The notes under the pieces were generated by a model that ran no database searches, was not told where the DNA came from, and saw only the letters and a list, made by a program, of their open reading frames with translations. From positions 16,519 to 80,518 of IMG/VR virus record IMGVR_UViG_3300048589_001057: a DNA stretch of 64,000 nucleotides; one strand, given 5' to 3'. The DNA is from a virus. Shown one piece after another: positions 4,040 through 44,221 of the stretch (positions are counted from its first letter, which is position 1; each line of letters starts with the position of its first letter). The position numbers and the translations under genes are program-made.

Positions 4040-5143
4040 ATGGATATCACAAAATACGAACAATCCGAGTTCAGAGGTAAAATCGAGGAAGCCGTAAGGT
4101 TCGGCTTAAACATCCGAAGTGATGCAAACCATCCCAAGGATATTTCATTACCTGAAATTATCAAGGAAAAATTCAATCTGGGCCTCTCAGATTTCCTGTT
4201 TGAACTGGGGATTAATCCTTCCGAGGACACTCTCCATAATATCTACACTGCCGTTGACAATGACATAAGGTGGTTAGTACCTGAATTTTTCCGCGAAGCT
4301 CTTTTGCTGGGTTACCGGGCAGCTCCAATATGGCCTTCAATTATTGCTTCCGAGGAGAATACCACTGGGTTGAGTCAAATCATGCCATGGTATAATATGT
4401 CCGATGTAGCTCCAAGGAAAGTTGGAGAGGGCGAAACTATCCCGGTTGGTACGGTTTCTTATGGGAGTAAGAAATTCAGTATTTACAAAATTGGTAGGGG
4501 TATTAAAATTACCGATGAAGTATCTCAGTATTCCAGCTTAAAACTGGTTTCCATTTTCCTCCGGGATTTTGGGGTAAAGTTTGGGCATGCTGCTGATACC
4601 CTTGCTATCGACACCCTTATTAATGGGGAACAAACTGACGGCTCAGAATCAGCTCCAGTAATCGGGGTTACCGACACTGTTGCTGGTAAACAATACAAGG
4701 ATCTTCTCCGCTTATGGATTCGCTTGGCACGTATTGGTCGTACACCAACAACCATTATCGGGGGTGAGGCCGCTGCCTTAAGCACCCTGGATATGGATGA
4801 ATTTAAGAAAAGGGAATCCGGTACAACGGAGAAGACCTTAGTACTAAAGACTCCTGTCCCCTCCTCTACTAATTACTTTATCCATGGTAATGTACCGCCA
4901 AACCAGGAGATCATGGTTGACCCAATGTCTGCCCTTATCAAGTTTAATGCCCAACCATTGAAGGTAGAATCCGAAAGGATCGTATCAAATCAAACTGAGG
5001 CCTTCTACGCTACCCTCACTACTGGGTTTGCTAAACTATTCCGCGATGCTGCGATCATTATGGATAGCAGTGTACTATTCTCCAGTTATGGATTCCCATC
5101 TTACTTGGATGTTGACCCATACCAAAACGTAACCATCGAGTAA
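4040..5143 (+). CDS. Major capsid protein (HK97 fold)
   Basis: 367 aa; WLVPE..., RKVGEGETIP, KIGRGIKITDE motifs; synteny with the head-neck-tail module. Confidence 0.85.
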   Translation: MDITKYEQSEFRGKIEEAVRFGLNIRSDANHPKDISLPEIIKEKFNLGLSDFLFELGINPSEDTLHNIYTAVDNDIRWLVPEFFREALLLGYRAAPIWPSIIASEENTTGLSQIMPWYNMSDVAPRKVGEGETIPVGTVSYGSKKFSIYKIGRGIKITDEVSQYSSLKLVSIFLRDFGVKFGHAADTLAIDTLINGEQTDGSESAPVIGVTDTVAGKQYKDLLRLWIRLARIGRTPTTIIGGEAAALSTLDMDEFKKRESGTTEKTLVLKTPVPSSTNYFIHGNVPPNQEIMVDPMSALIKFNAQPLKVESERIVSNQTEAFYATLTTGFAKLFRDAAIIMDSSVLFSSYGFPSYLDVDPYQNVTIE

Positions 5144-5150
5144 TGACTAG

Positions 5151-5173
5151 CGGGGGTTAACACCCCCACTTTT
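5151..5173 (+). terminator. Putative intrinsic terminator after the MCP
   Basis: GGGGG-TTAACA-CCCCC hairpin followed by ACTTTT. Confidence 0.45.
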
Positions 5174-5201
5174 CAAGTACTATTATTAATAAACCTACCA
5201 T

Positions 5202-5624
5202 ATGGAATATTTTAAATTAGGAGAAAAAGCCTCTATCTTTTATGACCCAAGTACCCAGGTACTTATTCGCCAGGGAGAAGTTCAGGCTTTTAAATCTTTA
5301 CCGAAAAGCAAAAAGGTTGGGCTTGCTCGTCGTAATGGCCATATTACCTCAGCCTCTGAGGAAGAGTATAACAACTATTTGGCTACTCTGGATAATCCTG
5401 AAGATGCCCCGATAGTTGTTCCCTCTAAGCCAAAAACCAAGGATAAGGACAAGGATCTTTATGAGTACAATCCGGAACTTCTTACCCTAACCCCAGACCA
5501 GTTCCGTAAAAAACTGGCTGAGGAATCGGGATTCCTAGATGAGGACTTGGACCAGTTCGAGAAACTCAAAGACATCAAGAAAATGATCAAACTCTTTGAT
5601 GAGATCAACAAAGAATACCAGTAA
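5202..5624 (+). CDS. Hypothetical protein after the MCP (C-terminal small helical domain)
   Basis: ORF track; preceded by an ACTATT motif. Confidence 0.6.
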   Translation: MEYFKLGEKASIFYDPSTQVLIRQGEVQAFKSLPKSKKVGLARRNGHITSASEEEYNNYLATLDNPEDAPIVVPSKPKTKDKDKDLYEYNPELLTLTPDQFRKKLAEESGFLDEDLDQFEKLKDIKKMIKLFDEINKEYQ

Positions 5625-5649
5625 CTTCAGTTTCCCATTACCAGCAAGG

Positions 5650-5681
5650 AAAGCCCTACCCTAAATGGGTGGGCTTTTTTT
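5650..5681 (+). terminator. Intrinsic terminator
   Basis: AAAGCCCTACCC-TAAAT-GGGTGGGCTTT plus T-run. Confidence 0.8.
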
Positions 5682-5727
5682 ATGTTAAAGCCATGGCATA
5701 CACTCCTCATTAGAACCCTCCACAAGT

Positions 5728-6243: not shown

Positions 6244-6732
6244 ATGCTAACTAATGCTCAATGGGCTGCGTACAGGCAGGTAATCAATGCAGCTAGTTTA
6301 TCTTTTAATCAAGAAGTTATTATTTGGAATAGAGCTAGTATAAAACTAGACAGGGATGGGGATGACACTATTAAACCCACATTTTTCCAACAGCCCCTAA
6401 ATGCTTTAATCCAATATAACGTAGCCCGGACATGGCCCATCGATAAGTCTACTGATACAGGTTTAATCGACAACCAGTCTGTGGCTATCATCCTGAATAA
6501 GGATTATCTTGCAGGATTAGGATTTATTAACCCATCCAACAATTTTGACTTCGACCCTGGATTTGACTACTTCACAGTACAGGGGGTAAACTATAAAAAA
6601 ATGGGGGATACCCCAGCTGCACAAGCCGGTGATGACCCCTTATTAGTATACCTCATATGCGAAAGGATGAGAGTTGAATCCGCTCAACCCCACTATGGGC
6701 CAGCTAGTGGTATTACCCCTGAAGTAGATTAA
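6244..6732 (+). CDS. Putative head closure/stopper protein
   Basis: Synteny; beta-rich with D.F.VQGVNY motif. Confidence 0.5.
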   Translation: MLTNAQWAAYRQVINAASLSFNQEVIIWNRASIKLDRDGDDTIKPTFFQQPLNALIQYNVARTWPIDKSTDTGLIDNQSVAIILNKDYLAGLGFINPSNNFDFDPGFDYFTVQGVNYKKMGDTPAAQAGDDPLLVYLICERMRVESAQPHYGPASGITPEVD

Positions 6733-6734
6733 CC

Positions 6735-7325
6735 ATGGCAGTACAAGTTGGCCAGAGTAAATACAAGGAAGGCGTAATAGGGGATTTCTATACCCGTAAT
6801 ATTACTGCTAACACCAAAATTGAATGGCTGGGTAATTGGGATAGGGTAGCTAGGATATTTAATGGGTTACCACAAGATATTAAGATTGTAACCCACCAAG
6901 CAATCCTAGAATACGCCAATAAGTACTACCATTCAGTAATCGGGGCTATTAATAACAATGGTGGTAGTGCTGTTAAATGGAAACCTTATTCAAGGGGGTA
7001 TGCTGCGGCAAAGAGAAAAAAAGGGTTACATGGGTTCCCATCCTTCTATAGACTAAAGGGAATGTTAGTGAAAGCTATAAAGGTTGAAACCCACGTACGG
7101 GGCCAGGTTAGAGTCACCATAAATAAAAACGCCCAGATGAGCAATTCTGATACTTCCCTTAATGCCTCTCAACTAATGAATATCCTGGAACATGGTTCAG
7201 TATCTCGGGGTATTAGTAAGCGGCCTTTATTCGGGCCAGTATGGTCTAGTATGGGTGGGAATAAGGCCTTATCCAAGTTTGTATCAGAACGTATAGGACG
7301 TAAAATCATAACTTACAGAAGCTAA
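6735..7325 (+). CDS. Neck/virion morphogenesis protein
   Basis: WKPYS..Y...K and ILEHG....I.KRPLFGP motifs of the HK97 gp10/Mu gpG-like family. Confidence 0.65.
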   Translation: MAVQVGQSKYKEGVIGDFYTRNITANTKIEWLGNWDRVARIFNGLPQDIKIVTHQAILEYANKYYHSVIGAINNNGGSAVKWKPYSRGYAAAKRKKGLHGFPSFYRLKGMLVKAIKVETHVRGQVRVTINKNAQMSNSDTSLNASQLMNILEHGSVSRGISKRPLFGPVWSSMGGNKALSKFVSERIGRKIITYRS

Positions 7326-23327: not shown

Positions 23328-23963
23328 TTAGGATAAAGCTAACTCCTTAAAATTTTCTCTGGCCATATCAATGGCTTGCTTAATCTCATTTCTGATATCC
23401 CTGATAAGATTACGGTTACTCGGGGTTACCTCTTCACCCAGGAATTGCAATATCAAATCCCCAGGTATCCTAGAATCTCGATTCTTAAGTTTGGATAAAA
23501 TAAAGAGGGGTGGATTTAATTGGATTTGAAGCAATTCCCAAGCTTCCCGGGAAAGAGTTTTTTGTAGGAATTCCATTGCTAGATTAAAAAGTAATTCCTG
23601 GTTATCATCCCGATAATCCTCAGTGATATTAAACATAGATAGGTCTTCCAAATTAATGGTGTTAAGAGCAATAGCATTGTTAGCTTGATAGGATCTCCTT
23701 AATACCTTAAGCTTAAAGGTTTTTAAAGAGTTAATAATATAACCAAGTAATACCTGGTTATCCAGTTTACCAAAGTACTTGTTGAAAACAAAAATAAATT
23801 TGTCATCAAACCAACTTCGAAGTTCATCTTTGGTAACTCCAAAGCGGGACTCATCTATTTGGTAGATTAGTGATTCCCTTAGGTTGTGGGTTTTTTTGTA
23901 GAGTTCATTGAAGAGGGCTTGGTCATAGCCTTCTTGCATGGGGGTTAATCGATGAAGTTCCAT
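23328..23963 (-). CDS. Sigma-70/ECF-like transcription factor
   Basis: DQALFNELY...DELRS...YI.NSL....LRR (region-2-like) and LSREAWELL...LQFLG...IRNEIK (region-4-like); the only credible minus-strand gene. Confidence 0.55.
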   Translation of the reverse strand: MELHRLTPMQEGYDQALFNELYKKTHNLRESLIYQIDESRFGVTKDELRSWFDDKFIFVFNKYFGKLDNQVLLGYIINSLKTFKLKVLRRSYQANNAIALNTINLEDLSMFNITEDYRDDNQELLFNLAMEFLQKTLSREAWELLQIQLNPPLFILSKLKNRDSRIPGDLILQFLGEEVTPSNRNLIRDIRNEIKQAIDMARENFKELALS

Positions 23964-28677: not shown

Positions 28678-28709
28678 TTACTTCAAAAACTATTAATAAT
28701 AAATCCACT

Positions 28710-29090
28710 ATGGAAAATATCAAACGAGAATCCCGTGATTCTAAAATATCTCCAGAGGCTTACTTAAAACCCTTTGATGTTACTAAATTTGGGGGAGAAG
28801 AGGATCCCTGTTTTGGGAAAGAATATGATTTAACTGCGCCAGAATGTGGGATATGTGGGGATATTGAGGCTTGCTCAATAGCATTTATGCATAATACAAC
28901 CCGGGTACGTACTCAACTTGAAGCTGAGAATAAGTACAAAGACTTAGAAGAGGCTGATATGATAAGGAAAAAACGTATAAGGGATTTCGTTAAATCCAAG
29001 AGAATGAAAGGGTGGGGTGATACCAGAATCATCACTGTCCTAAAAAGAAGATATTCACTAACCCGGGCAGCTGCCCATAATTTTTTGTAA
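28710..29090 (+). CDS. Hypothetical Cys-rich (Zn-binding) protein
   Basis: DPCFGK.YD..A.EC.ICGD.EAC. Confidence 0.6.
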   Translation: MENIKRESRDSKISPEAYLKPFDVTKFGGEEDPCFGKEYDLTAPECGICGDIEACSIAFMHNTTRVRTQLEAENKYKDLEEADMIRKKRIRDFVKSKRMKGWGDTRIITVLKRRYSLTRAAAHNFL

Positions 29091-29092
29091 AC

Positions 29093-29881
29093 ATGGATAT
29101 ACGAGATGTACTTCCAGTGGAAGAAGCCCCAAAGGATTCAACCATTGAAACCATTTTTAATAAGCAAGAGGAGTTGTTATCGGCCTATCTGAATATTGAA
29201 AAGCTGGAGCCTTGGCCATATGACTTAAACTCACCTAGCCACCAGATAATTCTTAAAGATTTTATAGCTAGAGTGGTGGAGGAATTGGGGGAAGGCTATG
29301 AATCATACGAGGCTTTGGTGAATCTACATATCAATGGGCAATCAGAAAATTCCAATATGATTCCCCTGTTATTTAACTTCAGTGAGGAGTTAGCAGATGC
29401 CTTGCATTTTTTGATTGAAACTTTTATCGTTTGTGGTATAACTATAAACGATATAAGGGAATACATAATCAACCAGGCTTTCCCCAACCTAGTTAACTCC
29501 CATAATACCTATAAGCTACTGGCTGGATCGAGTTATCTCATAAAGGTTAGTCATCCTGGAATAATGCATAATCTAGGAGATCCTATTGTTGATTCCATTC
29601 TAGGGGGGAAATGGGTTGATAAATCTCAACTAAGGGAATTAGCTATACTTTCATGGGAAGTAACTTATAAGTTGCAGTTAGCCAGGAACTCTCTCAAAAA
29701 TAAACCCTGGAAACAATCCCACATGGGAAGCGATAAACCCAGATTTACTAGGTACCTAATTGAATCCCTGAAGGCTTTTATTGTACTAACTAGAGCCATG
29801 GGGATTACCGAGGATGGGCTATTCCAACTTTACTCGGCCAAAAACCAAATAAACCAATTCCGCATAAGGAGTAAGTATTAA
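29093..29881 (+). CDS. All-alpha dNTP pyrophosphatase (dimeric dUTPase/dCTPase, T4 gp56-like)
   Basis: VEELGE..E, EELADALHF, LKNKPWK, Y..KNQIN.FR..S.Y. Confidence 0.75.
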   Translation: MDIRDVLPVEEAPKDSTIETIFNKQEELLSAYLNIEKLEPWPYDLNSPSHQIILKDFIARVVEELGEGYESYEALVNLHINGQSENSNMIPLLFNFSEELADALHFLIETFIVCGITINDIREYIINQAFPNLVNSHNTYKLLAGSSYLIKVSHPGIMHNLGDPIVDSILGGKWVDKSQLRELAILSWEVTYKLQLARNSLKNKPWKQSHMGSDKPRFTRYLIESLKAFIVLTRAMGITEDGLFQLYSAKNQINQFRIRSKY

Positions 29882-29882
29882 T

Positions 29883-30659
29883 ATGGAAACCTTCAAGATT
29901 CTAGAATTCGCTACTTCCCAGGAAGCCTGGGAAGGTATTAATGAGTACTTCTTATTGTCCCCAGAGGATATAATCAAACGCAATGGTACAAGCAGTAGTA
30001 GCCTACTTATTGCATATGATACCATAGTGAAGATTCGAAAACTCCGGGTGGACCCAGAATTTGACTTCAGTAGAACCTTCAACTACAGGAAGCAAAAATG
30101 GAATACCTTAGTGAGTAATTACGTGGACTTAAATCTACTGGATTTGGTAAAGACTGAGGTACAGAAGAGGGAAGCAAAGCGGGATTCCAATTACAATATC
30201 TCCTTCCTATTTGATAACACCCATATATCCGGTAAGGGTTGTCTACTAAGTATAACTTTTTCAAGAAGGAACTATGCTGACCAGCCTACCATGATAGTTT
30301 CCATGAGGTCATCAGAAATAGTTAAGAGGCTTAATTTTGATTTTCTCTTAGTACAAAGGATAGCTGAATACGTATATGGTACAAGAACCCATGTAGGAGC
30401 TAACTTCTACATACCAAATATGTATACAATACCTGAGGTGTCCGCTATGTATCACAAACACCGGGATTTAAAAATTCTATTCGAAGGGGTAGGAAAATTA
30501 ACCCCCTTCCAATCAAGGACTTTAGCTACCATTGATAAGTTCAGGGATATTGATATTGAAAAGATATCCTATAAGATACATCAAAGAGCGGCAAAAGTAT
30601 TACAAGGCCATGGGGAAGGTAAACCTTTATTGGCCAGGGATTTACAATTAACCAAGTAG
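29883..30659 (+). CDS. Divergent thymidylate-synthase-fold protein
   Basis: GKGCLLSITF (catalytic Cys position) and MRSSEIVKRLNFDF (RS motif, Asp at the specificity site). Confidence 0.6.
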   Translation: METFKILEFATSQEAWEGINEYFLLSPEDIIKRNGTSSSSLLIAYDTIVKIRKLRVDPEFDFSRTFNYRKQKWNTLVSNYVDLNLLDLVKTEVQKREAKRDSNYNISFLFDNTHISGKGCLLSITFSRRNYADQPTMIVSMRSSEIVKRLNFDFLLVQRIAEYVYGTRTHVGANFYIPNMYTIPEVSAMYHKHRDLKILFEGVGKLTPFQSRTLATIDKFRDIDIEKISYKIHQRAAKVLQGHGEGKPLLARDLQLTK

Positions 30660-30684
30660 ACTATTAATAATAAACACCCATAAA

Positions 30685-31398
30685 ATGAGAACATACCAAA
30701 ATTGCTACGAACTGATCTCTGAAATTGCCAGGGAGGTTCTAGAGATGGGAATAAGGGTTCATCCAAACTCCATGCAAAATAAAGTGGTTAAGGGAGATGA
30801 CAACTATTCTACTCTAGAAATCACCAATTACTCCTATTGCCTATTGAGTTTAGATAAAGTAGAATCCCTATTTACTAGTGACCCAAGATCAAAAGATTGG
30901 GTACTGGCTGAGTTCTTAGAAAGGATCAATTCCAGGGAGGTAAACCCAGGAGATGCCTATAAAATCCGAGAAGATGTCTGGTCACAATTCTTGGTGGATG
31001 GTAAGTTTGATTACTCCTATTCAGAAAGGATGAACTTCAACAATAACCTAAATAGGTTGTTAGTGGAGGCATCCAACAACATAGACTCCAGGCAATTAAT
31101 ACTGCCTATATTCCATGCTACGGATGTGGAAAACATTGGGGGATATAAGCGAGTACCATGTTCCATTTACTACCAATTCTTAATTCGAAATGGCCAAGTG
31201 GATATAGTATATGCCCAGCGTAGTGCAGATGTATTTACTCACTTTGGCAACGATGTGTTCCTAGCTTGGAGGTTAATGGTCTACTTTGCTACTCAATTAA
31301 AGCTAAAGCCTGGCTACCTATATCATAATATTGGCTCCCTGCACGTTTACAACAAAGACACCGAAAACTTAAGGAAATGCCTGAAAGAAAGGTTATAA
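30685..31398 (+). CDS. Thymidylate-synthase-family enzyme, dCMP hydroxymethylase/methylase-like
   Basis: YSYSER, DSRQ, RVPCS.YYQFLIR, QRSADVFTHFGNDV, GSLHVY. Confidence 0.8.
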   Translation: MRTYQNCYELISEIAREVLEMGIRVHPNSMQNKVVKGDDNYSTLEITNYSYCLLSLDKVESLFTSDPRSKDWVLAEFLERINSREVNPGDAYKIREDVWSQFLVDGKFDYSYSERMNFNNNLNRLLVEASNNIDSRQLILPIFHATDVENIGGYKRVPCSIYYQFLIRNGQVDIVYAQRSADVFTHFGNDVFLAWRLMVYFATQLKLKPGYLYHNIGSLHVYNKDTENLRKCLKERL

Positions 31399-31712
31399 AA
31401 AATGAGGTGGCTATCCAAGAGGCTTATATTGAGGCTTTTGGTAAAAACCATATATTGCTGAAGCTAGCTGAGGAGGCAAGTGAGCTTACCCAAATTTGCC
31501 TAAAGCTAGTTGATAAAGATAACTTGAACTTACCTATATCCCCAGATTTAATTGGACATTTCTGGGAGGAGATGGCTCATTTAAAGCTATTCTGGGATAT
31601 GGGTAAGAAAGTTATAAACCATGAGTATTTACTTCAGGATCACAGTACAGAGAGATTAAACAGGTTACAGGTAAAGTTAACAGAAAGGAAAAACCAACAT
31701 GAAACATTCTAG
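31377..31712 (+). CDS. MazG-like nucleotide pyrophosphohydrolase
   Basis: KLAEEASELTQ...K and EEMAHL. Confidence 0.6.
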   Translation: MPERKVIKNEVAIQEAYIEAFGKNHILLKLAEEASELTQICLKLVDKDNLNLPISPDLIGHFWEEMAHLKLFWDMGKKVINHEYLLQDHSTERLNRLQVKLTERKNQHETF

Positions 31713-32163
31713 CTTAAATAGGATAAATCGAATTACCCTTTATCTCGAAACAGCCCGTCTCAATTCCAGACGGGCTACTTGTTTACGGGGTCAAGTAGGG
31801 GCTGTATTAGTAAGGGACAAACGGATTATAGCTTCTGGTTACAATGGGCCAGCTAAAGGGCAGGACCATTGTAATAGTACCACTTGTGACTTATCTAAGC
31901 CATGTACTCACGCTATTCATGCAGAGGCTAATCTTATTGCCTATTGTGCAAAGCAGGGGATCGCTACAGATAAAGCTATCTTGATAGTCACAACTTGCCC
32001 ATGCCAAAAATGCTCGGAAATCATTATCCAATCTGGTATAAACCGGATAGTTTATGATGGGGAATATAGAAATGAAGATGGGCTATCACTATTACTTCAG
32101 GCTAAAATTACAATAGTTAAGTACGAACCCAATATACATTTCCCAGATGATTTCTTCATATAA
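31699..32163 (+). CDS. dCMP deaminase
   Basis: ATCLR.QVGAVLV, SGYNG, HAEAN, PCQKC. Confidence 0.9.
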   Translation: MKHSSLNRINRITLYLETARLNSRRATCLRGQVGAVLVRDKRIIASGYNGPAKGQDHCNSTTCDLSKPCTHAIHAEANLIAYCAKQGIATDKAILIVTTCPCQKCSEIIIQSGINRIVYDGEYRNEDGLSLLLQAKITIVKYEPNIHFPDDFFI

Positions 32164-34258
32164 AATATGCTTAATTCTAGAGGATATCTATGAGTTAATT
32201 GGGTATATCTACCAAACTGGCTATGCCTGTATAGATTTTGAAACATCCTCATTGGAATATTATGAAGAATCTGAATACCCAACTATACTTGGTATATCAT
32301 TTCAACCGGGTTCTGGGTGGATAATTCCTCTGGGTCATTATGAATCTCCATGGAGGGATACTTACCCTGAAATCATAAGGCTTTTAAAGCCAGTACTGGA
32401 AGACCCTAATATAGTCAAGATAGCATGGAATGCTAAATATGAATACAAATGGCTATTGCGATATGGGATTGAGCCTATGGGTAGGTTCTTCGATGCTATG
32501 CTATTAAAATACCTTCTTAAAGAGGATAGGCCCCATGACCTTAAGAGTATGGTAGATACCTACTTACCGGACTTCGGGGGTTATGCTCTGAAGGGTAGTA
32601 ACCGGGGTAACTTTGATTGGCGGAAAGTTCCCCTAAAGGAATTAAGTAAGTACTGTGCTTTAGATACAGATAACACATTGAGGTTATTCTTATTCTTAGA
32701 ACCTAAAGTAATTGACCTGGGATTTTACTCCTTATTTAGGAACCTATTTTCCATGTTGGTTAGGGTTTTGGGTAAATGTGAGCACTTTGGTATGAAGGTA
32801 GATAAGAAATACCTATCAACTTTGGTCGCCAAGTATTCCAACCTCATCCAAGATAATGAATTGGCCTTACGTAACTCTAAAAAGGTAAAAAGGTATGAAA
32901 GGAAGAGATTAAAGAGCATAAAAGAAAAACTCATTGAGGAATTGGAAGAAGAGATTGAGGAATTGGAATCTAGGGGAGCTAGCCAACTTCAAATATCCAA
33001 CAGGGTATCCAAGATCACCGCTATTAGAAGTGGGGGTAAAACCACCAAAAATATAGAAAAGCTTTTAGCCCCCATTAATTTTGGCAGCCCTAAACAAATG
33101 GCCGAGTTCTTATATGAAAGCCCATATGGGTTGGAATTACCCATATTAGATTACACTGACTCTGGGGCACCCTCTTCTGCTGAAGAAACTTTATTAAAAC
33201 TTAAAGAACAGGATTCCTCCGGATTCATAGATAGATTATTAAAATCCCGGGAATTGGAAAAACTTAATTCCACCTACATCACAGGTATATGGGAAAAACT
33301 ATCATCTTCAGACCGGATTCATAGTTCTTATAAAATCAATGGTACTGTTACAGGTAGGTTAAGTTCAACCTCCCCTAACATGCAAAATGTTCCCCGGGTA
33401 ACTACTAATCCAGATATTAAACCCATGTTTACAGCTCCCTCTGGGTATGCTTTGGTGGAATTAGATTATTCTCAAGCAGAGTTAAGAATCGTAGCAGAGC
33501 TGGCTAAAGAAAAACAAATGATTGAATGGTTCCAACAGGGCCATAATATTCACGTAGCTGTAGCAGCTAAAGTAGCTGGTGTTCCCTATGAAACAGCTTA
33601 CCCCATAACCAAGGATGAAAATCACCCGGAACATAAAGAGTGGACTAAACGTAAAAAGAGAGCAAAGACGATTAACTTTGGAATCCTATATGAGCAAGGC
33701 CCATCTAAGTTGGCTGTTACTCTTAAGTGTACTAAAGAAGAGGCAGCTAAGTTTAAGCAAGAGTGGCTAGAAACTTTCCCAGCTATAAGTAAATGGATTA
33801 ACCGCCAACATAAACTAGCCCGTAAACATGGGTTCGTATATAATATGTGGGGTTTTAAAAGACGTCTACCAGAAATCTATTCCAGCAATAAGGGTAAACA
33901 AATGGAAGCTGAACGCCAATCAGTTAATGCCCCTATTCAGGGTGCCGCTTCATTCTTCACCCTATTCAGCGCCATCGTAATTGAAGAGATGAGACTTACG
34001 GGACAAATACCATTGGACTTCCCAATGGTATACACTGTACATGACTCTCTGGGTTTTTATGTTAGGCTGGATAAAATCCATGAATTTGCCAAGATAGCTG
34101 TACCAGTTATGGCAAACCCCCAAACTCAGGAGTTCTTTGGGTTCCAGATGAAATACGTTCCTATGAAAGCTTCCATGGAACTGGGTTTAAACTGGGGATC
34201 CTATCACGATTATTCACCAACTGAAGATTACACAAAATGGGCTTTAATAAACACTTAA
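32147..34258 (+). CDS. polA: Family A DNA polymerase with 3'-5' exonuclease
   Basis: DFET exo I, TGRLSS..PNMQN, DYSQAELR, KTINFGILY, NAPIQG, VHDS. Confidence 0.95.
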   Translation: MISSYKICLILEDIYELIGYIYQTGYACIDFETSSLEYYEESEYPTILGISFQPGSGWIIPLGHYESPWRDTYPEIIRLLKPVLEDPNIVKIAWNAKYEYKWLLRYGIEPMGRFFDAMLLKYLLKEDRPHDLKSMVDTYLPDFGGYALKGSNRGNFDWRKVPLKELSKYCALDTDNTLRLFLFLEPKVIDLGFYSLFRNLFSMLVRVLGKCEHFGMKVDKKYLSTLVAKYSNLIQDNELALRNSKKVKRYERKRLKSIKEKLIEELEEEIEELESRGASQLQISNRVSKITAIRSGGKTTKNIEKLLAPINFGSPKQMAEFLYESPYGLELPILDYTDSGAPSSAEETLLKLKEQDSSGFIDRLLKSRELEKLNSTYITGIWEKLSSSDRIHSSYKINGTVTGRLSSTSPNMQNVPRVTTNPDIKPMFTAPSGYALVELDYSQAELRIVAELAKEKQMIEWFQQGHNIHVAVAAKVAGVPYETAYPITKDENHPEHKEWTKRKKRAKTINFGILYEQGPSKLAVTLKCTKEEAAKFKQEWLETFPAISKWINRQHKLARKHGFVYNMWGFKRRLPEIYSSNKGKQMEAERQSVNAPIQGAASFFTLFSAIVIEEMRLTGQIPLDFPMVYTVHDSLGFYVRLDKIHEFAKIAVPVMANPQTQEFFGFQMKYVPMKASMELGLNWGSYHDYSPTEDYTKWALINT

Positions 34259-34887
34259 TCCTTAAATCATCTGAACCTATGACAAATTACAGAATCGCCT
34301 TATGTGGCCCCAGTGGTAGTGGGAAATCTACTTTAGCAAATGCCATAGCAACTCATTTGCAAATACCCTACAAAGAAAACAGCGCAGGACTCCTCCTCCC
34401 TAAGGAAGACCAGGATTTTCTGATCTCCAATTTTGGCTGGAAAAAATCTGGCCATTCTGATGTAATAGCTTTATCTCATACCAACCCGGCTTTTGGGTGG
34501 GAGTTCCAAACTCGCTTACTAGCTGCCAGGTCCAAGTTCATGCAGTCAAATGCCAATTACATCATTGACAGGAGTCCAGTGGATAACCTGGTTTATTTTT
34601 TAATGCAAACGGCTTTACACTATCCACAGGAATCAGCAAAGTATTTCATTGAAGCTGCCCAATTGGCCGCCAGGAATTTAACCCACCTTATTTTTATCCC
34701 CACCATGTTAACCGGGGAAATAGAGAATAATGGTTCTAGGGTAGCTAACTATTACTACCAACAGATGGTAACATCCATATTCGCCCACGTAATCCATACT
34801 TACTTCCAAGGAGTTAAATTCTTGGAGCTACCCACAAGTAATTTTGAGTTAAGGCGTAGTGCCACTCTTAAATTCTTGCACACTTAA
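34237..34887 (+). CDS. P-loop deoxynucleoside monophosphate kinase
   Basis: GPSGSGKST, IIDRSPVD. Confidence 0.7.
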   Translation: MGFNKHLILKSSEPMTNYRIALCGPSGSGKSTLANAIATHLQIPYKENSAGLLLPKEDQDFLISNFGWKKSGHSDVIALSHTNPAFGWEFQTRLLAARSKFMQSNANYIIDRSPVDNLVYFLMQTALHYPQESAKYFIEAAQLAARNLTHLIFIPTMLTGEIENNGSRVANYYYQQMVTSIFAHVIHTYFQGVKFLELPTSNFELRRSATLKFLHT

Positions 34888-36126: not shown

Positions 36127-38337
36127 ATGGCTAAGAAGTCAAAAAAGGGGGGTATTTTATCCCCCTTACAAATCCAGAAAAAATACCCTGGTTCTGGTAT
36201 AGCTACATCTATAGCCATACCATCCCTGGACACTCTTTGGATCCCCTCTCGGTGCTTACCCCTTAATTATGCCACTGGTGGGGGTATCCCCTACGGTAAA
36301 ATCCTAGAAATCTATGGCCAGGAAAGCTCGGGTAAAACTCTAGCCGCTTTAGACTTTGGGTCGGTAGTTCAGGCTTTGGGTGGGGAGATTATGTACAATG
36401 ATGCAGAGATGGCATTCACTATTGACTGGGCTATAAAAAATGGCCTAGACCCCAATAAAATACACCTTTACCCAGAAACTTCGGTGGAACTAATATCCGA
36501 CTGGATAATGGATACAGCCATATCCATTAGGGCTAGGTTAGTAAAAAATGAGCCAATACTATTCATCCAAGATTCCATTGCCGCTTTAGATTGTATGGCC
36601 AATATCAATTCTTCCCAGACTGATTCCAAAGCTGAGATGGGTAATAGGGCTAAAGCTATCTATAAAATGGTAAGGATTAGGAATCAAATGCTGGCTGAGA
36701 TGGGAGTAACCTCAATTTTTATAAACCAGATAAGAAGTAATATCAAAGCCTCTACAAGCCGGTTCTCTGGGGTCGACCCCGACTGCCTCCACTACAATAC
36801 CCTAGTCCATCTTGTGGACGGTAGAACTTTACCCATTGGGGAAATCGTAAGGGGGAAAATTGCCGGTGAGGTTTGGAGTTATAATGAAACTACTTTATCC
36901 GTAGAACCCAAGCCTATCATCGGCTGGGTGGAAAAAGAGAAGCTTGAACCCGGAGAAAAATGGCTATCCATCGTAACCAATGGGCCTGGAAGTAAAGGGG
37001 GGAAATTTGGTATTGTCTGTACGGAAAAACACGGTATATTCACTGCTTTTAAGGGTTGGGTTAATGCCCGAGATTTAAAGGTTGGGGATATGGTATTAAC
37101 CTATGCCCCCTATAAAATCAATGGTACCCTCAGGGACTTCTTAGAGGGCTCGGCGATAGGGGATTCTTCCATTAGAGTAAGGGATACCAGTACGGCTAGG
37201 TATAGGCTACAAGATTCAGAACAGCCAGAATACCTACAGTGGAAGTTGAATTTACTATCCGAACATTACTCTTTTAAAGCCGAATACGATAGTCAATTGA
37301 ATATCCGGTTTACCACTGATTACTCTACGGAGTGGGCTATCTTCGGGGCAAAATTCCCTAATCGTAATCCCTCAGCTTTATTCTGTAATACCCCTAATGC
37401 CTTAACCATGGCAGTTTGGTATATGGATGATGGACATCTATCCGACTCAGGGATTATAAGCATAGCCATATCCCCAAAGAGAGTTGACTTGCAGGAATTG
37501 GCGGAATGGTTGTCGGGGTATGGGTATATATGTAAACCCTATAAAAAGGGGATAAGGTTTAGTAATGACGGGGGTAAAAGATTACACCGGCTTATTGCTA
37601 AATACGTCCCTGAATGCATGGCCCATAAACTTAAACCCGAATATCAGGGAATGCATGAGCCATTTGGGTTAACCTGCCACCCAGAAATTACCCCCCTACC
37701 CACTAAAGTGGTAAGTATCAATGGGGCTGGGGAAAGGCATTACCGGAAACTCCATAAGTACGACCTTACTATCCAAGATAACCATAGCTTCTTCGCTGGC
37801 AGTGTTGGCCCAGGTTTCCTGGTACATAACACTACCCCTGGGGGTCAAGCCATGAAGTTTTTTGCCAGTATTAGGTTGGGTATATATGCTGGTAGACAAA
37901 TTAAGGAGAAGGTAGGGGGTTATGAAGACCGAGTGGGATCTGAAACTTCAGTAAGGGTTAAGAAGAATAAGGTAGCTCCCCCAAAGCCAACTTTTAAAGC
38001 CAAGATGTATTTTAATCCTGACTATGAGGCTAAGCCTCTTGGATTTGACAGGTATTTTGGATTAGGGGAATTACTTATTCGAACTAATGTACTAAGCCGT
38101 AAGCCAAATAGCAGTATGATATACCTGGATGGTACTTTGATTGCCAGAGGTGAAAAGAGCTTAGATTTAAAACTGGCTAAAGATGCTAAATTACGTAGAG
38201 CTTTGATAAAGGCTTCATCGATTAATACCGTATCCAAAACACGGAATAAACTCAATGGGTTATCCCATAATTTATACCCAGTAAAAACCAAGAAGTTCAT
38301 CTCCCAATTAAATGATGAGGAAAATGAAGATGAGTAA
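36127..38337 (+). CDS. recA: RecA/UvsX recombinase precursor containing an intein
   Basis: GGGIPYG, EIYGQESSGKT, QDSIAAL, FINQIR, TTPGG.AMKFFASIRL, KNKVAPP. Confidence 0.95.
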   Translation: MAKKSKKGGILSPLQIQKKYPGSGIATSIAIPSLDTLWIPSRCLPLNYATGGGIPYGKILEIYGQESSGKTLAALDFGSVVQALGGEIMYNDAEMAFTIDWAIKNGLDPNKIHLYPETSVELISDWIMDTAISIRARLVKNEPILFIQDSIAALDCMANINSSQTDSKAEMGNRAKAIYKMVRIRNQMLAEMGVTSIFINQIRSNIKASTSRFSGVDPDCLHYNTLVHLVDGRTLPIGEIVRGKIAGEVWSYNETTLSVEPKPIIGWVEKEKLEPGEKWLSIVTNGPGSKGGKFGIVCTEKHGIFTAFKGWVNARDLKVGDMVLTYAPYKINGTLRDFLEGSAIGDSSIRVRDTSTARYRLQDSEQPEYLQWKLNLLSEHYSFKAEYDSQLNIRFTTDYSTEWAIFGAKFPNRNPSALFCNTPNALTMAVWYMDDGHLSDSGIISIAISPKRVDLQELAEWLSGYGYICKPYKKGIRFSNDGGKRLHRLIAKYVPECMAHKLKPEYQGMHEPFGLTCHPEITPLPTKVVSINGAGERHYRKLHKYDLTIQDNHSFFAGSVGPGFLVHNTTPGGQAMKFFASIRLGIYAGRQIKEKVGGYEDRVGSETSVRVKKNKVAPPKPTFKAKMYFNPDYEAKPLGFDRYFGLGELLIRTNVLSRKPNSSMIYLDGTLIARGEKSLDLKLAKDAKLRRALIKASSINTVSKTRNKLNGLSHNLYPVKTKKFISQLNDEENEDE
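36784..37830 (+). mobile_element. Intein with LAGLIDADG homing endonuclease (349 aa)
   Basis: Starts CLHYNT, block B CTEKH, GSAIGDS and WYMDDG endonuclease motifs, ends LVHN followed by Thr. Confidence 0.93.
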
Positions 38338-42032: not shown

Positions 42033-42569
42033 ATGATTAACTCAAGACGGAAGGGTTCTAAGTCAGAGAGAATGGTTTCAAAGCTTTTTCAGGAATGGAC
42101 TGGGTATGAATTTGCTAGAACCCCTGGATCAGGGGGAATGCAATGGCATAATAGGTCTCAGGTATCTGGAGATATAGTTTGCACCGATGCCCTACATGCA
42201 ACCAGGTTTGGATTTTCAGTTGAGACTAAATTCCACAAGGAAATAAATTTTGAACACCTTATTATGGGTTTGAAGGGGTCTTCTATACACAGCTTTTGGA
42301 ATCAGGCTAACCGGGATGCACAAAGGGCTAAAAAAATTCCCATGCTTCTAATGAGGTACAATAGGATGCCAAAAAACTTACATTTTATTTGTCTTCCTCA
42401 ACCCTTTTTCTTGATGATTAAGGAACACCTAACTCTAGAGAATGAATACCTGATCTATTCAGGCCTAGATAGGATAGTAATATTAAACTCCTGGGATTTT
42501 TTTAAATCTGATTACAAGATAATCCACAAACTTGCTAAAACCTTTTTAAAAAATGGGAAACTATCATAA
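42033..42569 (+). CDS. Holliday junction resolvase (PD-(D/E)xK)
   Basis: NSRRKG...ER, RTPGSG, GDI, VETK, FWNQA. Confidence 0.75.
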   Translation: MINSRRKGSKSERMVSKLFQEWTGYEFARTPGSGGMQWHNRSQVSGDIVCTDALHATRFGFSVETKFHKEINFEHLIMGLKGSSIHSFWNQANRDAQRAKKIPMLLMRYNRMPKNLHFICLPQPFFLMIKEHLTLENEYLIYSGLDRIVILNSWDFFKSDYKIIHKLAKTFLKNGKLS

Positions 42570-43266
42570 ATATGTTTGGTGCGTAGCCTACATCAATAGG
42601 CCCTTTTTATCCACCATTACTCGGGATTTAGAAAAATTCGGGTATACCCAAGTAAAATCCTATATTCCAACTGTAAGGGTACTTAGAAAACAATTTAAAA
42701 ACCAGAAACATTTCGAAGAGGTACCCCTACTATTTAATTATGGGTTCTTCAGGCTAACATTTGAAGATGCCTGTAACAAGGATTTTCTTATGCGTATGAA
42801 AGTCTCAATCCAAGGTATATATGGGTGGCTATATACCAATGAAAGTCCGGAAGTGGATGAAGATACTGGAATGTACTTTAATAAGTTGGAAGTGGCAACT
42901 GTTAGGATAAAAGAAATAATAATGTTAAAACGGGCTTGCTTACTAAACTCTATATACTCATCTGATGATCTAAGTGGGATATGTAAGGATGACTTTATTA
43001 TTCTAAAGGGTTACCCATTTGAGAATATCCCCGCTCAGATAGTATCTATTAATGCAAAGAAGGAGCAGGTAAGAGTAAGGTTGGAATTAGGCAATGGCTC
43101 TATTTTTAATGAGGTTACGGTTGACTTTTCAAACGTATTCTATTCCATATACTCTAACTTTGATGACCCAACCTTGACTGATACTACATTAGAAGGCTTA
43201 AAAGATAGGTCACCAAGAGAATTCTACAAGGCTATACATAACACCCCTACTGACCATGAAAATTAA
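42553..43266 (+). CDS. NusG-family (UpxY/RfaH-like) transcription elongation/antitermination factor
   Basis: WCVAY, YIPT, EVPLLFNYGF (NGN domain); GYPFE...AQIVSIN..KEQVRV (KOW). Confidence 0.75.
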   Translation: MGNYHKYVWCVAYINRPFLSTITRDLEKFGYTQVKSYIPTVRVLRKQFKNQKHFEEVPLLFNYGFFRLTFEDACNKDFLMRMKVSIQGIYGWLYTNESPEVDEDTGMYFNKLEVATVRIKEIIMLKRACLLNSIYSSDDLSGICKDDFIILKGYPFENIPAQIVSINAKKEQVRVRLELGNGSIFNEVTVDFSNVFYSIYSNFDDPTLTDTTLEGLKDRSPREFYKAIHNTPTDHEN

Positions 43267-44221
43267 TCCAGATGCCTGGGCGATACTCAATCAGGATGAA
43301 AAACTAAGTATAAGCCTTTCTTTAGGCCATAATAAGTCTAGTTGGGAATCCGGGGAAATCATGAGTAAGTCCCATTATAAATACCTGGAGATAAAAGCCA
43401 GGGCCGAAAGATTTTTGAGAATGTTCACAGAGTACTTCCAAAAATACGGTGGGCTTTTCCCAGAAAAGAATAAGTCGGACCAATTCTTCAGGGATTACTT
43501 TGAAATGTTGATTATCCAAAGGATGTCATTAAAGGCCACCATAGGAAGTATTCAGCATAGTGGGTATAAGATAAGCGGAAAAAGGGAAGTAATCCTAGAA
43601 AGCGAGATGGTTAAACTTAAATCTTCCAAGTACGCTGGGGATAGGGAACTATTTGATGTTCTACTGGAATTTGATAGGTGGAATAATTTCAGGGTGTTAC
43701 CCAAGGTACTACAACAACCCTCCGCTTTTAAAAGGAGAAACAAAACTAGGGAATTAAAACACTTAAAGAGCATAACTAATATCCATAGCTATTCCATCAA
43801 GAAAATTCATGAAAGGTTCGCCACTAACAAATCTAATGGGGTATGTTTCTTTACCCTACTAGGAGATAACCTACCTGGTAACTTCAAGGTGATTAAAATG
43901 GTTAACCGTTCTAAAGAGATAAAACAGATATCCAGCTTAGGATTCTTTATTTTTGAAGAAGAGGTGCAAGCTATTACTTTAGGTAAACTGGTATCAGCTT
44001 ACCTATTTCCTAAGATGTCTATGGGGTTTAGCCCAGTTATTAAGGGTTTACAATTTTGGTCCAACTATAGGGAGCTAATCAGCAAGGCTATAAATTACTT
44101 AGCTGTATATAACATAATCCCAAATAGGAAATACGTTGAGGATGCCCTAATAGAACAGCAATTAAAGAAAAAGAGGATTCAAAGGGTAAAATCAGAAATT
44201 AAGGAGTTGCTAAATGATTAA
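43256..44221 (+). CDS. Hypothetical protein with N-terminal sigma-70 region-4-like HTH
   Basis: LNQDEK..I.L.....KS..E.GEIM..S......I..RA.R.LR pattern. Confidence 0.45.
   Translation: MKINPDAWAILNQDEKLSISLSLGHNKSSWESGEIMSKSHYKYLEIKARAERFLRMFTEYFQKYGGLFPEKNKSDQFFRDYFEMLIIQRMSLKATIGSIQHSGYKISGKREVILESEMVKLKSSKYAGDRELFDVLLEFDRWNNFRVLPKVLQQPSAFKRRNKTRELKHLKSITNIHSYSIKKIHERFATNKSNGVCFFTLLGDNLPGNFKVIKMVNRSKEIKQISSLGFFIFEEEVQAITLGKLVSAYLFPKMSMGFSPVIKGLQFWSNYRELISKAINYLAVYNIIPNRKYVEDALIEQQLKKKRIQRVKSEIKELLND

Follow-up and report, generated by a model that had tools for sequence, protein, structure and literature searches.

What would a phage do with two adjacent proteins of the thymidylate synthase (TS) fold, each carrying an aspartate at the position where an Asn177-to-Asp exchange switches TS enzymes to deoxycytidine monophosphate (dCMP) (PMC8670742; bioRxiv 10.1101/2024.12.05.627091)? 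The question is raised by a 64,000-nucleotide (nt) stretch of DNA, here called the window, which comprises bases 16519-80518 of IMG/VR record IMGVR_UViG_3300048589_001057, a complete 80,518-bp genome of an uncultured phage with direct terminal repeats. Seven open reading frames (ORFs) at window positions 29093-34887 had been read in an initial annotation as a cytosine-modification system, and all seven are found at these coordinates on the + strand. Two of them, designated A1 and A2, encode the TS-fold proteins. A role in C5 modification of cytosine is the best reading of the A1/A2 locus, and we consider it fairly probable that the stretch is a pre-replicative deoxycytidylate-modification cassette inside the phage replication operon. 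Three genes form its core:

29093-29881, + strand: all-alpha nucleoside triphosphate (NTP) pyrophosphatase of the dimeric-dUTPase/MazG superfamily (PF08761 dUTPase_2, phrog_12184)
29883-30659, + strand: A1, an orphan TS-fold family (AlphaFold2 (AF2) model, structural matches, motif register)
30685-31398, + strand: A2, a TS-superfamily protein of 237 residues (PF00303, E 6.8e-16)

The A2 protein matches PF00303 with 58.6 bits (cut-off 24.3), which places it in the TS superfamily, and its AF2 model (pLDDT 95.1) aligns in VIA with AfhB (Z 23.7), MilA (Z 23.5) and E. coli TS (Z 21.8). Residues 8-237 of A2 align to residues 1-224 of the E. coli enzyme (ThyA), and the last 40 residues of ThyA are missing. 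In an ungapped alignment to solved TS structures, QRSADVFTHFGND falls on QRSADVFLGVPFN, with Asp190 of A2 at Asn177 and Cys159 at Cys146. The family match and this register bear out the earlier description of the gene as a TS relative with a catalytic cysteine and a cytosine-type aspartate. In E. coli numbering, the A2 signature consists of Glu58, Trp80, Tyr94, Arg126, Gln127, Arg143, Cys146, Ser147, Arg166, Asp169, His173, Asn176, Asp177, Ser205, His207 and Tyr209. The set that serves covalent catalysis and folate use (Glu58, Trp80, Tyr94, Arg126, Cys146, Arg166, Ser167, Asp169, His207 and Tyr209) is retained in full. Asp177 is invariant in 34/34 aligned A2 sequences and in 77 full-length copies from related loci. 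Position 143, three residues before the cysteine, is occupied by an arginine (Arg156 of A2) that is invariant in the same 34 sequences and in all A1-linked TS proteins, those of cultured phages included. An invariant histidine takes the place of Gly173, a position within 6 Å of C5, and a glutamine replaces Arg127.

The class of A2 was read from an alignment of 34 members with E. coli ThyA, T4 gp42, the dCMP methylase of Xanthomonas phage Xp12 and RB69 gp48. As a control of the mapping, RB69 gp48 shows Glu143/Asn169/Asp177 and T4 gp42 shows Asp143/Asp169/Asp177, as published (PMC13326640, PMC6400193). ThyA enzymes carry Asn177, Leu143 and a C-terminal tail (E. coli residues 258-264); at position 177 A2 has Asp190 and A1 has Asp153, and A2 has Arg156 at position 143 and no tail. 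The dCMP hydroxymethylases (dCH) of the T4 type combine Asp179 with a short C-terminus, as does A2 (Asp190, 237 residues), and have an Asp or Glu three residues before the cysteine (Asp145 in T4), where A2 has Arg156. In T4 dCH, Asp145 is essential for activating the substrate water, the D145N variant is inactive, and the missing C-terminal tail has been linked to non-reductive chemistry (PMC6400193). The 5-hydroxy-dCMP synthases have Asp169 exchanged for Asn in every enzyme tested (PMC13326640); the equivalent residue is Asp182 in A2 and Glu145 in A1. Assignment of A2 to the 5-hydroxy-dCMP synthases was ruled out by its retained Asp169, the RB69 gp48 control showing Asn169. With the Xp12-type methyltransferases A2 has Asp177 in common, and it lacks both their TS-like C-terminal region and their linkage to dihydrofolate reductase (DHFR).

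By these residues, A2 fits none of the four characterised classes and is a fifth signature class. In a maximum-likelihood tree the A2 clade (support 98/95) is sister to RB69 gp48 and the 5-hydroxy-dCMP synthases (94/84), followed by T4 gp42, and ThyA groups with the Xp12 enzyme apart from the A2 clade. We infer from the signature that A2 is a dCMP-specific, folate-dependent, non-reductive C5 one-carbon transferase. The products first proposed for the system, 5-methyl-dCMP and 5-hydroxymethyl-dCMP, are each contradicted by A2, the former by the missing TS C-terminal tail and the latter by the arginine at the position of T4 Asp145.

The A1 protein has no match in Pfam or PHROG, and searches of PDB sequences, with the single sequence and with a 38-sequence profile, returned chance matches only. 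Its AF2 model (pLDDT 94.5, pTM 0.92), when searched with Foldseek and VIA-align, returned only structures of the TS superfamily. The best match is AfhB (PDB id: 9iqu), the dCMP hydroxylase of phage HY126 (Z 14.2, 183 residues, root-mean-square deviation 3.9); MilA follows at Z 12.7, and some 390 other chains of the TS superfamily reach Z >= 8, the listed TS entries among them at Z about 10; the alignments cover 165-187 residues. Three independent alignments (A1 against A2 in hhalign, MAFFT, and hhalign against an E. coli ThyA/TS alignment) give a register to E. coli ThyA in which Cys120 corresponds to Cys146, Arg142 to Arg166, Glu145 to Asp169, Arg149 to Gly173 and Asp153 to Asn177. In the TS superfamily the nucleophilic Cys opens the central strand, and Arg166-Ser167 come after the strand that follows. 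The structural scores, with Cys120 and Arg142 in register, place A1 in this superfamily, and the early view of this divergent gene as a TS-fold protein with a catalytic Cys and Asp proved correct.

For the A1 family, 183 homologues were collected and 38 of them aligned. When 1.84 billion representative proteins were searched with a profile, 194 clusters (50% identity) emerged, a small and sharply bounded family of proteins that are mostly 250-305 residues long. Across 26 aligned members, only 15-23% identical to the A1 of the window, the invariant columns are Tyr80, Phe110, Cys120, Arg142 and Asp153, of which Cys120, Arg142 and Asp153 are also kept across the 38 closer relatives. In TS enzymes, Cys146 is the nucleophile, Arg166 binds the phosphate and residue 177 selects the base. 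Since their A1 equivalents are invariant at such low identity, A1 is probably a working enzyme, and the nature of these residues suggests that it is catalytically competent towards a cytosine ligand. The protein has lost the conserved Arg126/Arg127 pair and the conserved equivalent of Arg21, and three residues are deleted before the cysteine. An extra, structured domain of about 60 residues has been added at its C-terminal end, in which Arg235 is conserved in close relatives and Leu254, near the C-terminus, is nearly invariant family-wide. In the maximum-likelihood tree A1 forms a clade of its own (support 100/99). Eight proteins of 322-483 residues (from the best 150 of the 194 clusters) were scanned as possible A1-A2 fusions, and no Pfam TS domain was found in their extensions.

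The two proteins occur together. Among 80 related IMG/VR loci, some of which are cut by contig ends so that the gene counts are lower bounds, the gene order is helicase, Cys-rich protein, pyrophosphatase, A1, A2, (deaminase), DNA polymerase I-like polymerase (PolA), (kinase), a 152-residue protein and single-stranded DNA-binding protein (SSB), with the genes in brackets present in some loci. A2 lies next to A1 in 78/80 loci, PolA follows the module in 78/80, and the pyrophosphatase directly precedes A1 in 73/80 and in every divergent lineage examined. In contigs of other sizes and gene contents that carry divergent A1 subfamilies, pyrophosphatase, A1 and A2 again stand in this order, followed by a deaminase and PolA in 8/12. 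Two contigs in which Mre11/Rad50 genes follow A1 have an A2-type TS and a deaminase a few kb away, and one of the two has a second A1-like ORF. An IMG/VR scan with the alignment of a third A1 subgroup found no loci. All A1-linked TS proteins examined bear the Gln127/Arg143/His173/Asp177/Ser205 signature, with Asn at 205 in the Mycobacterium phage Muddy and the Gordonia phage Gibbous, and in the tree the A1 subclades largely parallel those of A2, as expected of co-inherited partners. As side observations, besides the A1 next to its pyrophosphatase, contig L103 has a second A1-like ORF (L103:1917-2891) immediately behind its A2-type TS, and contig L091 has an extra Asn177-type, ThyA-like TS (L091:3445-4089) just before the pyrophosphatase. 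The latter means that the module can coexist with ordinary thymidylate synthesis.

The same module is found in cultured phages: Muddy (gp48-gp47-gp46-gp45-gp44), Serratia phage Serbin (052 to 048), Gibbous (45, 43, 42 ... 39, 38) and Clostridium perfringens phage Clo-PEP-1 (gp3-gp2-gp1). The 'hypothetical protein' that separates 'dUTPase' from 'thymidylate synthase' in Muddy, Serbin and Gibbous belongs to the A1 family (E 2e-15, 1e-22 and 4e-12, respectively), and Clo-PEP-1 gp2 matches the A1 profile at 95.6% in hhalign. In Gibbous (L106), a gene annotated as lysin B (6319-7083) lies between the A2-type TS and the dCMP deaminase, among the nucleotide-metabolism genes, an odd place for a lysis gene. 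The linkage of A1 and A2 is obligate, and the pair is conserved in unrelated phage lineages; the presence of both in 78/80 loci and in cultured phages confirms that the two TS-fold proteins are a conserved pair.

The third core gene product belongs to the all-alpha NTP pyrophosphatases by its profile matches and its acidic metal-binding motifs. It matches PF08761 (E 7.7e-7, 30 bits with a cut-off of 22.9) over its C-terminal 39 residues only (224-262) and phrog_12184, a nucleotide pyrophosphohydrolase family, with E 3e-23. The motifs EELGEGYE and SEELADALH (EExxE and EExxD, residues 63-70 and 98-103) would bind the metal, and the protein is 29% identical to Clo-PEP-1 gp3 (E 3e-29). By analogy with T4, we infer a role as a dCTPase, which would supply dCMP and empty the dCTP pool. 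The remaining genes of the stretch, and the gene just upstream of it, are as follows:

28710-29090, + strand: Cys-rich protein of 126 residues (no Pfam match; pattern CxGx(10)CxxCx(5)C)
31377-31712, + strand: candidate MazG-like NTP pyrophosphohydrolase of 111 residues (phrog_2245 at E 3e-7 only; no Pfam match)
31699-32163, + strand: dCMP-deaminase-family protein (PF00383 E 2e-21; PDB id: 2hvv, E 8.6e-27; HAE and PCxxC zinc motifs)
32147-34258, + strand: family A DNA polymerase with a 3'-5' exonuclease domain (PF00476 E 1.3e-82, PF01612 E 1.6e-21)
34237-34887, + strand: P-loop NTPase, candidate deoxynucleoside monophosphate kinase (PF13521 E 3.5e-9)

The Cys-rich protein is syntenic before the pyrophosphatase in 74/80 related loci and is absent from the module of Muddy, Serbin and Clo-PEP-1. 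The deaminase is 33% identical to that of Xp12 over 89 residues. The kinase assignment is weak, as its matches to thymidylate-kinase PHROGs and PDB entries cover the P-loop region only. A deaminase occurs in 10/80 related loci, a kinase in 7/80 and a MazG-like gene in 0/80, and because they are so rare these three genes are accessories; they were rejected as core parts on their frequency in relatives. The deaminase is found in most of the divergent and cultured lineages despite its low count in close loci. The seven-gene cluster was originally taken for one system. What stands is a core of pyrophosphatase, A1 and A2, usually with PolA, to which the deaminase, kinase and MazG-like genes are accessory.

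How could these proteins work together? The TS fold and the conserved residues of A2 and A1 are observed, and the other steps of the pathway are proposed by analogy with T4 and with TS enzymology. The 29093 pyrophosphatase would split dCTP to dCMP, as T4 gp56 does. A2 would then bind dCMP through Asp190, attack C6 with Cys159 and add a one-carbon unit to C5 from methylene-tetrahydrofolate, for which Asp182, Glu79, Trp99 and Tyr112 are kept. As A2 lacks the C-terminal tail of ThyA, its site would not close for hydride transfer, and the exocyclic-methylene intermediate would be trapped by a nucleophile. This trapping step should differ from that of T4, because the water-activating aspartate is replaced by an invariant arginine and an invariant histidine stands at Gly173. 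In mutants of TS, the exocyclic methylene can be lost to thiol nucleophiles, so trapping by another nucleophile is chemically reasonable. The product of A2 could be hydroxymethyl-dCMP made by another route or a different 5-(X-methyl)-dCMP. A1 would be a second TS-fold enzyme for a cytosine ligand, acting with A2 either as one half of a heterodimer or in the next step, in which the C5 substituent would be re-activated by attack on C6. Phosphorylation of the product would fall to the phage P-loop kinase where there is one and to host kinases elsewhere; the phage PolA, which presumably uses the modified dNTP, would then build it into DNA. The deaminase and the small MazG-like protein may balance the nucleotide pools.

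The rest of the genome bears on where such a modification would end. In the whole 80,518-bp genome there is no second PF00303 match and no ThyX, which extends to the genome what had been claimed for the window, namely that it has no Asn-type ThyA or ThyX. The genome likewise has no match to the Pfam families of GT1, GT2, TET/JBP, carbamoyltransferase or DHFR; for the GT1 and GT2 families, this agrees with the earlier statement that no glycosyltransferase is visible. Given these absences, any modification should be finished at the nucleotide level. The phage probably replaces cytosine with a C5-modified cytosine. We tentatively suggest that A1 and A2 together may act on the mononucleotide to make a cytosine derivative that is as yet undescribed. 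The A2 intermediate might be trapped by neither water nor hydride but by another nucleophile, held in place by the invariant equivalents of Arg143 and His173; alternatively, A1 might re-activate a 5-hydroxymethyl group by attack on C6 and exchange it for another group.

Several observations weigh against the cytosine-modification cassette. Modified cytosine in the virion DNA, the nucleotide split by the pyrophosphatase, the A2 product and any A1 activity are predictions from the genes and the protein models. The hhalign probabilities for A1 are low (3.7% against A2 and 6.5% against TS) and not significant, so the homology claim rests on the predicted structure and the motif register. In TS enzymes each subunit lends Arg126 and Arg127 to the phosphate site of its partner; having lost this pair and the Arg21 equivalent, A1 may not bind a 5'-monophosphate in the usual way. 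Most relatives have no phage kinase (it is present in 7/80 loci). The absence of matches to DHFR, TET/JBP, glycosyltransferases and carbamoyltransferases fits a phage with no hypermodification equally well. Outside the window, at genome bases 4712-5710, there is a gene resembling C5 cytosine DNA methyltransferases (PF00145 E 5e-10), whose product has APDCG as motif IV instead of the usual PC-containing motif and ENL where ENV is usual. Such an enzyme would serve no purpose if all cytosines already bore a C5 substituent, which argues against complete C5 substitution. Finally, the literature on DNA modification in Muddy, in phages of the Clo-PEP-1/CPD4 type and in MT121964, MT121960 and MT836181 yielded nothing relevant, although its coverage was partial and the evidence from it is weak.

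Three other explanations have to be set against the cassette. A bypass like that of Xp12, in which A2 makes 5-methyl-dCMP with A1 supplying the lid or hydride geometry, and in which the product, once phosphorylated, is incorporated as 5-methylcytosine (5mC) or deaminated to dT nucleotides in place of a phage ThyA, is unlikely. It would account for the deaminase, which lies two genes after A2 (with the MazG-like ORF between) and near the TS in Muddy, Serbin, Gibbous and the L088-L096 lineage, and for the lack of ThyA and ThyX in the genome. Muddy, Serbin and Clo-PEP-1 have flanking 'thymidylate kinase' genes beside the module, and of seven published deaminase-linked Asp-type TS enzymes five made 5-methyl-dCMP (5mdCMP), a linked deaminase making dTTP from 5mdCTP (bioRxiv 10.1101/2024.12.05.627091). 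However, A2 stops at E. coli residue 224, short of the tail that TS needs to form dTMP, whereas the methylase of Xp12 retains Gly173 and a long C-terminal region like that of TS, and its place in the tree is with ThyA and apart from A2. Xp12 also has DHFR beside its TS, while this genome has no DHFR match, and 70/80 close relatives that keep pyrophosphatase, A1 and A2 do without the deaminase.

The similarity of A2 to T4 dCH, with which it has Asn176, Asp177, Ser205 and the GSLHVY motif in common, raises the possibility that A2 alone is an ordinary dCMP hydroxymethylase, and that A1 is a non-catalytic partner, whether a pseudoenzyme, a scaffold, a regulator of the complex that synthesises nucleotides or a binder of the host TS. 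The position of A2 in the branch of dCH and 5-hydroxycytosine (5hoC) synthases agrees with this, as does the loss from A1 of the Arg126/Arg127 pair and of three residues before its cysteine. We regard it as decidedly unlikely: A2 has an arginine where T4 dCH needs Asp145 (D145N is inactive; PMC6400193), even relatives at 15% identity keep the A1 equivalents of the catalytic Cys, Arg166 and Asp177, a constancy that one would not expect in a pseudoenzyme, and no glycosyl- or carbamoyl-transferase match was found that could use a hydroxymethyl group. Highly improbable is the plainest account, ordinary thymidylate supply, in which A2 would be a divergent ThyA working on dUMP made by the deaminase, the 29093 product a plain dUTPase and the DNA canonical. 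Homologues are indeed annotated in databases as 'thymidylate synthase' and 'dUTPase', yet the aspartate at 177 never varies (34 aligned A2 proteins, 77 full-length locus copies), the last 40 residues of ThyA are missing from A2, and the additional Asn-type TS beside the module in the relative L091 would be redundant.

How much of the cytosine-modification cassette is new follows from a comparison with known systems. In the MetaGPA work, no domain was more strongly associated with modified-cytosine contigs than PF00303, in which positions 177 and 147 discriminated best, and in these contigs it co-occurs with PRA-PH-type pyrophosphohydrolases and dCMP deaminases (PMC8670742). Neighbourhoods of an Asp177 TS, PRA-PH, deaminase and PolA have been published, as has the conversion of 5mdCTP to dTTP by a linked deaminase (bioRxiv 10.1101/2024.12.05.627091). 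Such cassettes have these domains co-localised within about 3 kb, and the region 29093-34258 holds all of them. The initial annotation presented the locus as the strongest candidate for an undescribed system; its layout of Asp-type TS, pyrophosphohydrolase, dCMP deaminase and PolA was in fact already in print (PMC8670742; bioRxiv 10.1101/2024.12.05.627091). The idea of a deaminase that makes dT from 5-methyl-dC had likewise been published, and its claim to novelty falls (bioRxiv 10.1101/2024.12.05.627091). In the literature searched, we found A1 described nowhere, nor its obligate pairing with a distinct TS subclass, nor the signature of that subclass. New here are the paired enzyme A1, the A2 subclass and the product that they would make; the logic of the pathway is not new.

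This logic of pyrophosphatase, TS-fold enzyme, deaminase, kinase and the phage's own polymerase is that of the T4 5-hydroxymethylcytosine (hmC) pathway (gp56, gp42 (PDB ids: 1b5d, 6a9a), cd, gp1 and gp43). T4 gp42 (Cys, Asp179) resembles A2 in its short C-terminus, Asn176, Ser205 and GSLHVY motif. Unlike gp42, A2 has Arg for Asp145, His at Gly173 and Gln at Arg127; moreover, the second TS-fold protein A1 is obligatory here, there is no GT1 or GT2 match, and the polymerase is of family A, not family B as in T4. The metavirome cassette with the 5mC-selective deaminase mSCD-B5 (the type of Xanthomonas phage Xp12) has an Asp177 TS, a pyrophosphohydrolase, a deaminase and a PolA with exonuclease within a few kb, as here, and the papers that describe it do not mention a second, Pfam-undetectable TS-fold gene. 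The Xp12 methylase has 289 residues, a TS-like C-terminal region, Gly173 and an adjacent DHFR gene, whereas A2 has 237 residues and resides in a genome with no DHFR match. The flavin-dependent 5-hydroxy-dCMP synthases (HY126 AfhB (PDB ids: 9iqu, 9iqc), RB69 gp48 and DLP3 gp80; PMC13326640), which give the best structural match of both A1 and A2, are like A2 short TS-fold proteins that act on dCMP and carry Asp177, and they are its sister group in the tree. They differ in the Asp169-to-Asn exchange, which is absent from A1 and A2, and no arabinose or glycosyl-transfer genes were found here. MilA, the CMP 5-hydroxymethylase of mildiomycin synthesis (PDB ids: 5jnh, 5b6d), is a cytosine-specific, non-reductive TS-fold enzyme (Z 23.5 to A2, 12.7 to A1); it differs in having Asp at both 143 and 177 (PMC13326640), a ribonucleotide substrate, a bacterial origin and a 90-residue C-terminal extension.

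The cassette lies in a + strand replication block that spans 24.1-44 kb of the window and contains genes for a DnaB-like helicase, primase, SF2 helicase, the cassette, a gp32-like SSB, a RecA-like protein, a 5'-3' exonuclease, Mre11/Rad50-like proteins, a PD-(D/E)XK nuclease and a ligase. The seven ORFs are tightly packed, with gaps of +2, +1 and +25 nt followed by overlaps of 22, 14, 17 and 22 nt, in keeping with the contiguous nucleotide-metabolism cluster beside a phage PolA that had been described. At the DNA level, the region had no match among 50,697 phage records. The 14-mer ACTATTAATAATAA occurs in 6 copies in the window (<=1 mismatch; 0.23 expected), all on the + strand:

5179, 10111, 24095, 28689, 30660 and 46665, + strand: copies of ACTATTAATAATAA (motif count)
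28689-28702, + strand: copy 21 nt before the start codon at 28710, heading the unit of Cys-rich protein, pyrophosphatase and A1
30660-30673, + strand: second copy, in the 25-nt gap between A1 and A2, heading the unit of A2, MazG-like protein, deaminase, PolA and kinase

The three copies checked (24095, 28689 and 30660) are located 21-26 nt upstream of a start codon, and the motif may be a phage-specific promoter or translation signal.

Some other genes of this phage deserve mention. The RecA-like gene (36127-38337, + strand) encodes 736 residues, about twice the usual length, and has an insertion that begins with a Cys after the ATPase core, ends in ...VHN/T and, by its sequence, resembles an intein that carries a homing endonuclease domain. 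A KOW/NusG-like gene follows the PD-(D/E)XK nuclease (window 42553-44221 and 23328-23963), as it does in the related contig L100 (PF23290 KOW match). Two further genes encode a pyrimidine-dimer glycosylase resembling T4 endonuclease V (PF03013 E 7e-19; L003:4086-4622, - strand) and a GroES-like co-chaperonin (PF00166 E 1e-9; L003:2576-3100, - strand).

To our knowledge, almost every known hypermodification of pyrimidines in phage DNA begins with an enzyme of the TS family. Earlier branches of the family (methyl, hydroxymethyl and, in 2025-26, hydroxyl) each brought new chemistry, anti-restriction strategies and tools for epigenetic sequencing. The fifth signature class represented by A2 is tied to a family of the same fold, A1, that domain databases miss, and published screens that clone only the annotated 'thymidylate synthase' would therefore test half of a two-protein system; in a preprint from NEB, 2/7 such TS genes gave no 5mdC (bioRxiv 10.1101/2024.12.05.627091). 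Because the same A1-A2 pair is present in cultured, easily grown phages, the chemistry is directly testable. If A1 and A2 do make an undescribed cytosine derivative, this base would be present in many phages of Bacteroidota-type gut viromes and of Clostridium, Serratia, Gordonia and Mycobacterium, the therapeutic phage Muddy among them. The product could matter for the evasion of restriction and CRISPR by these phages and for the behaviour of their DNA during sequencing and engineering, one of the carriers being a phage used in patients.

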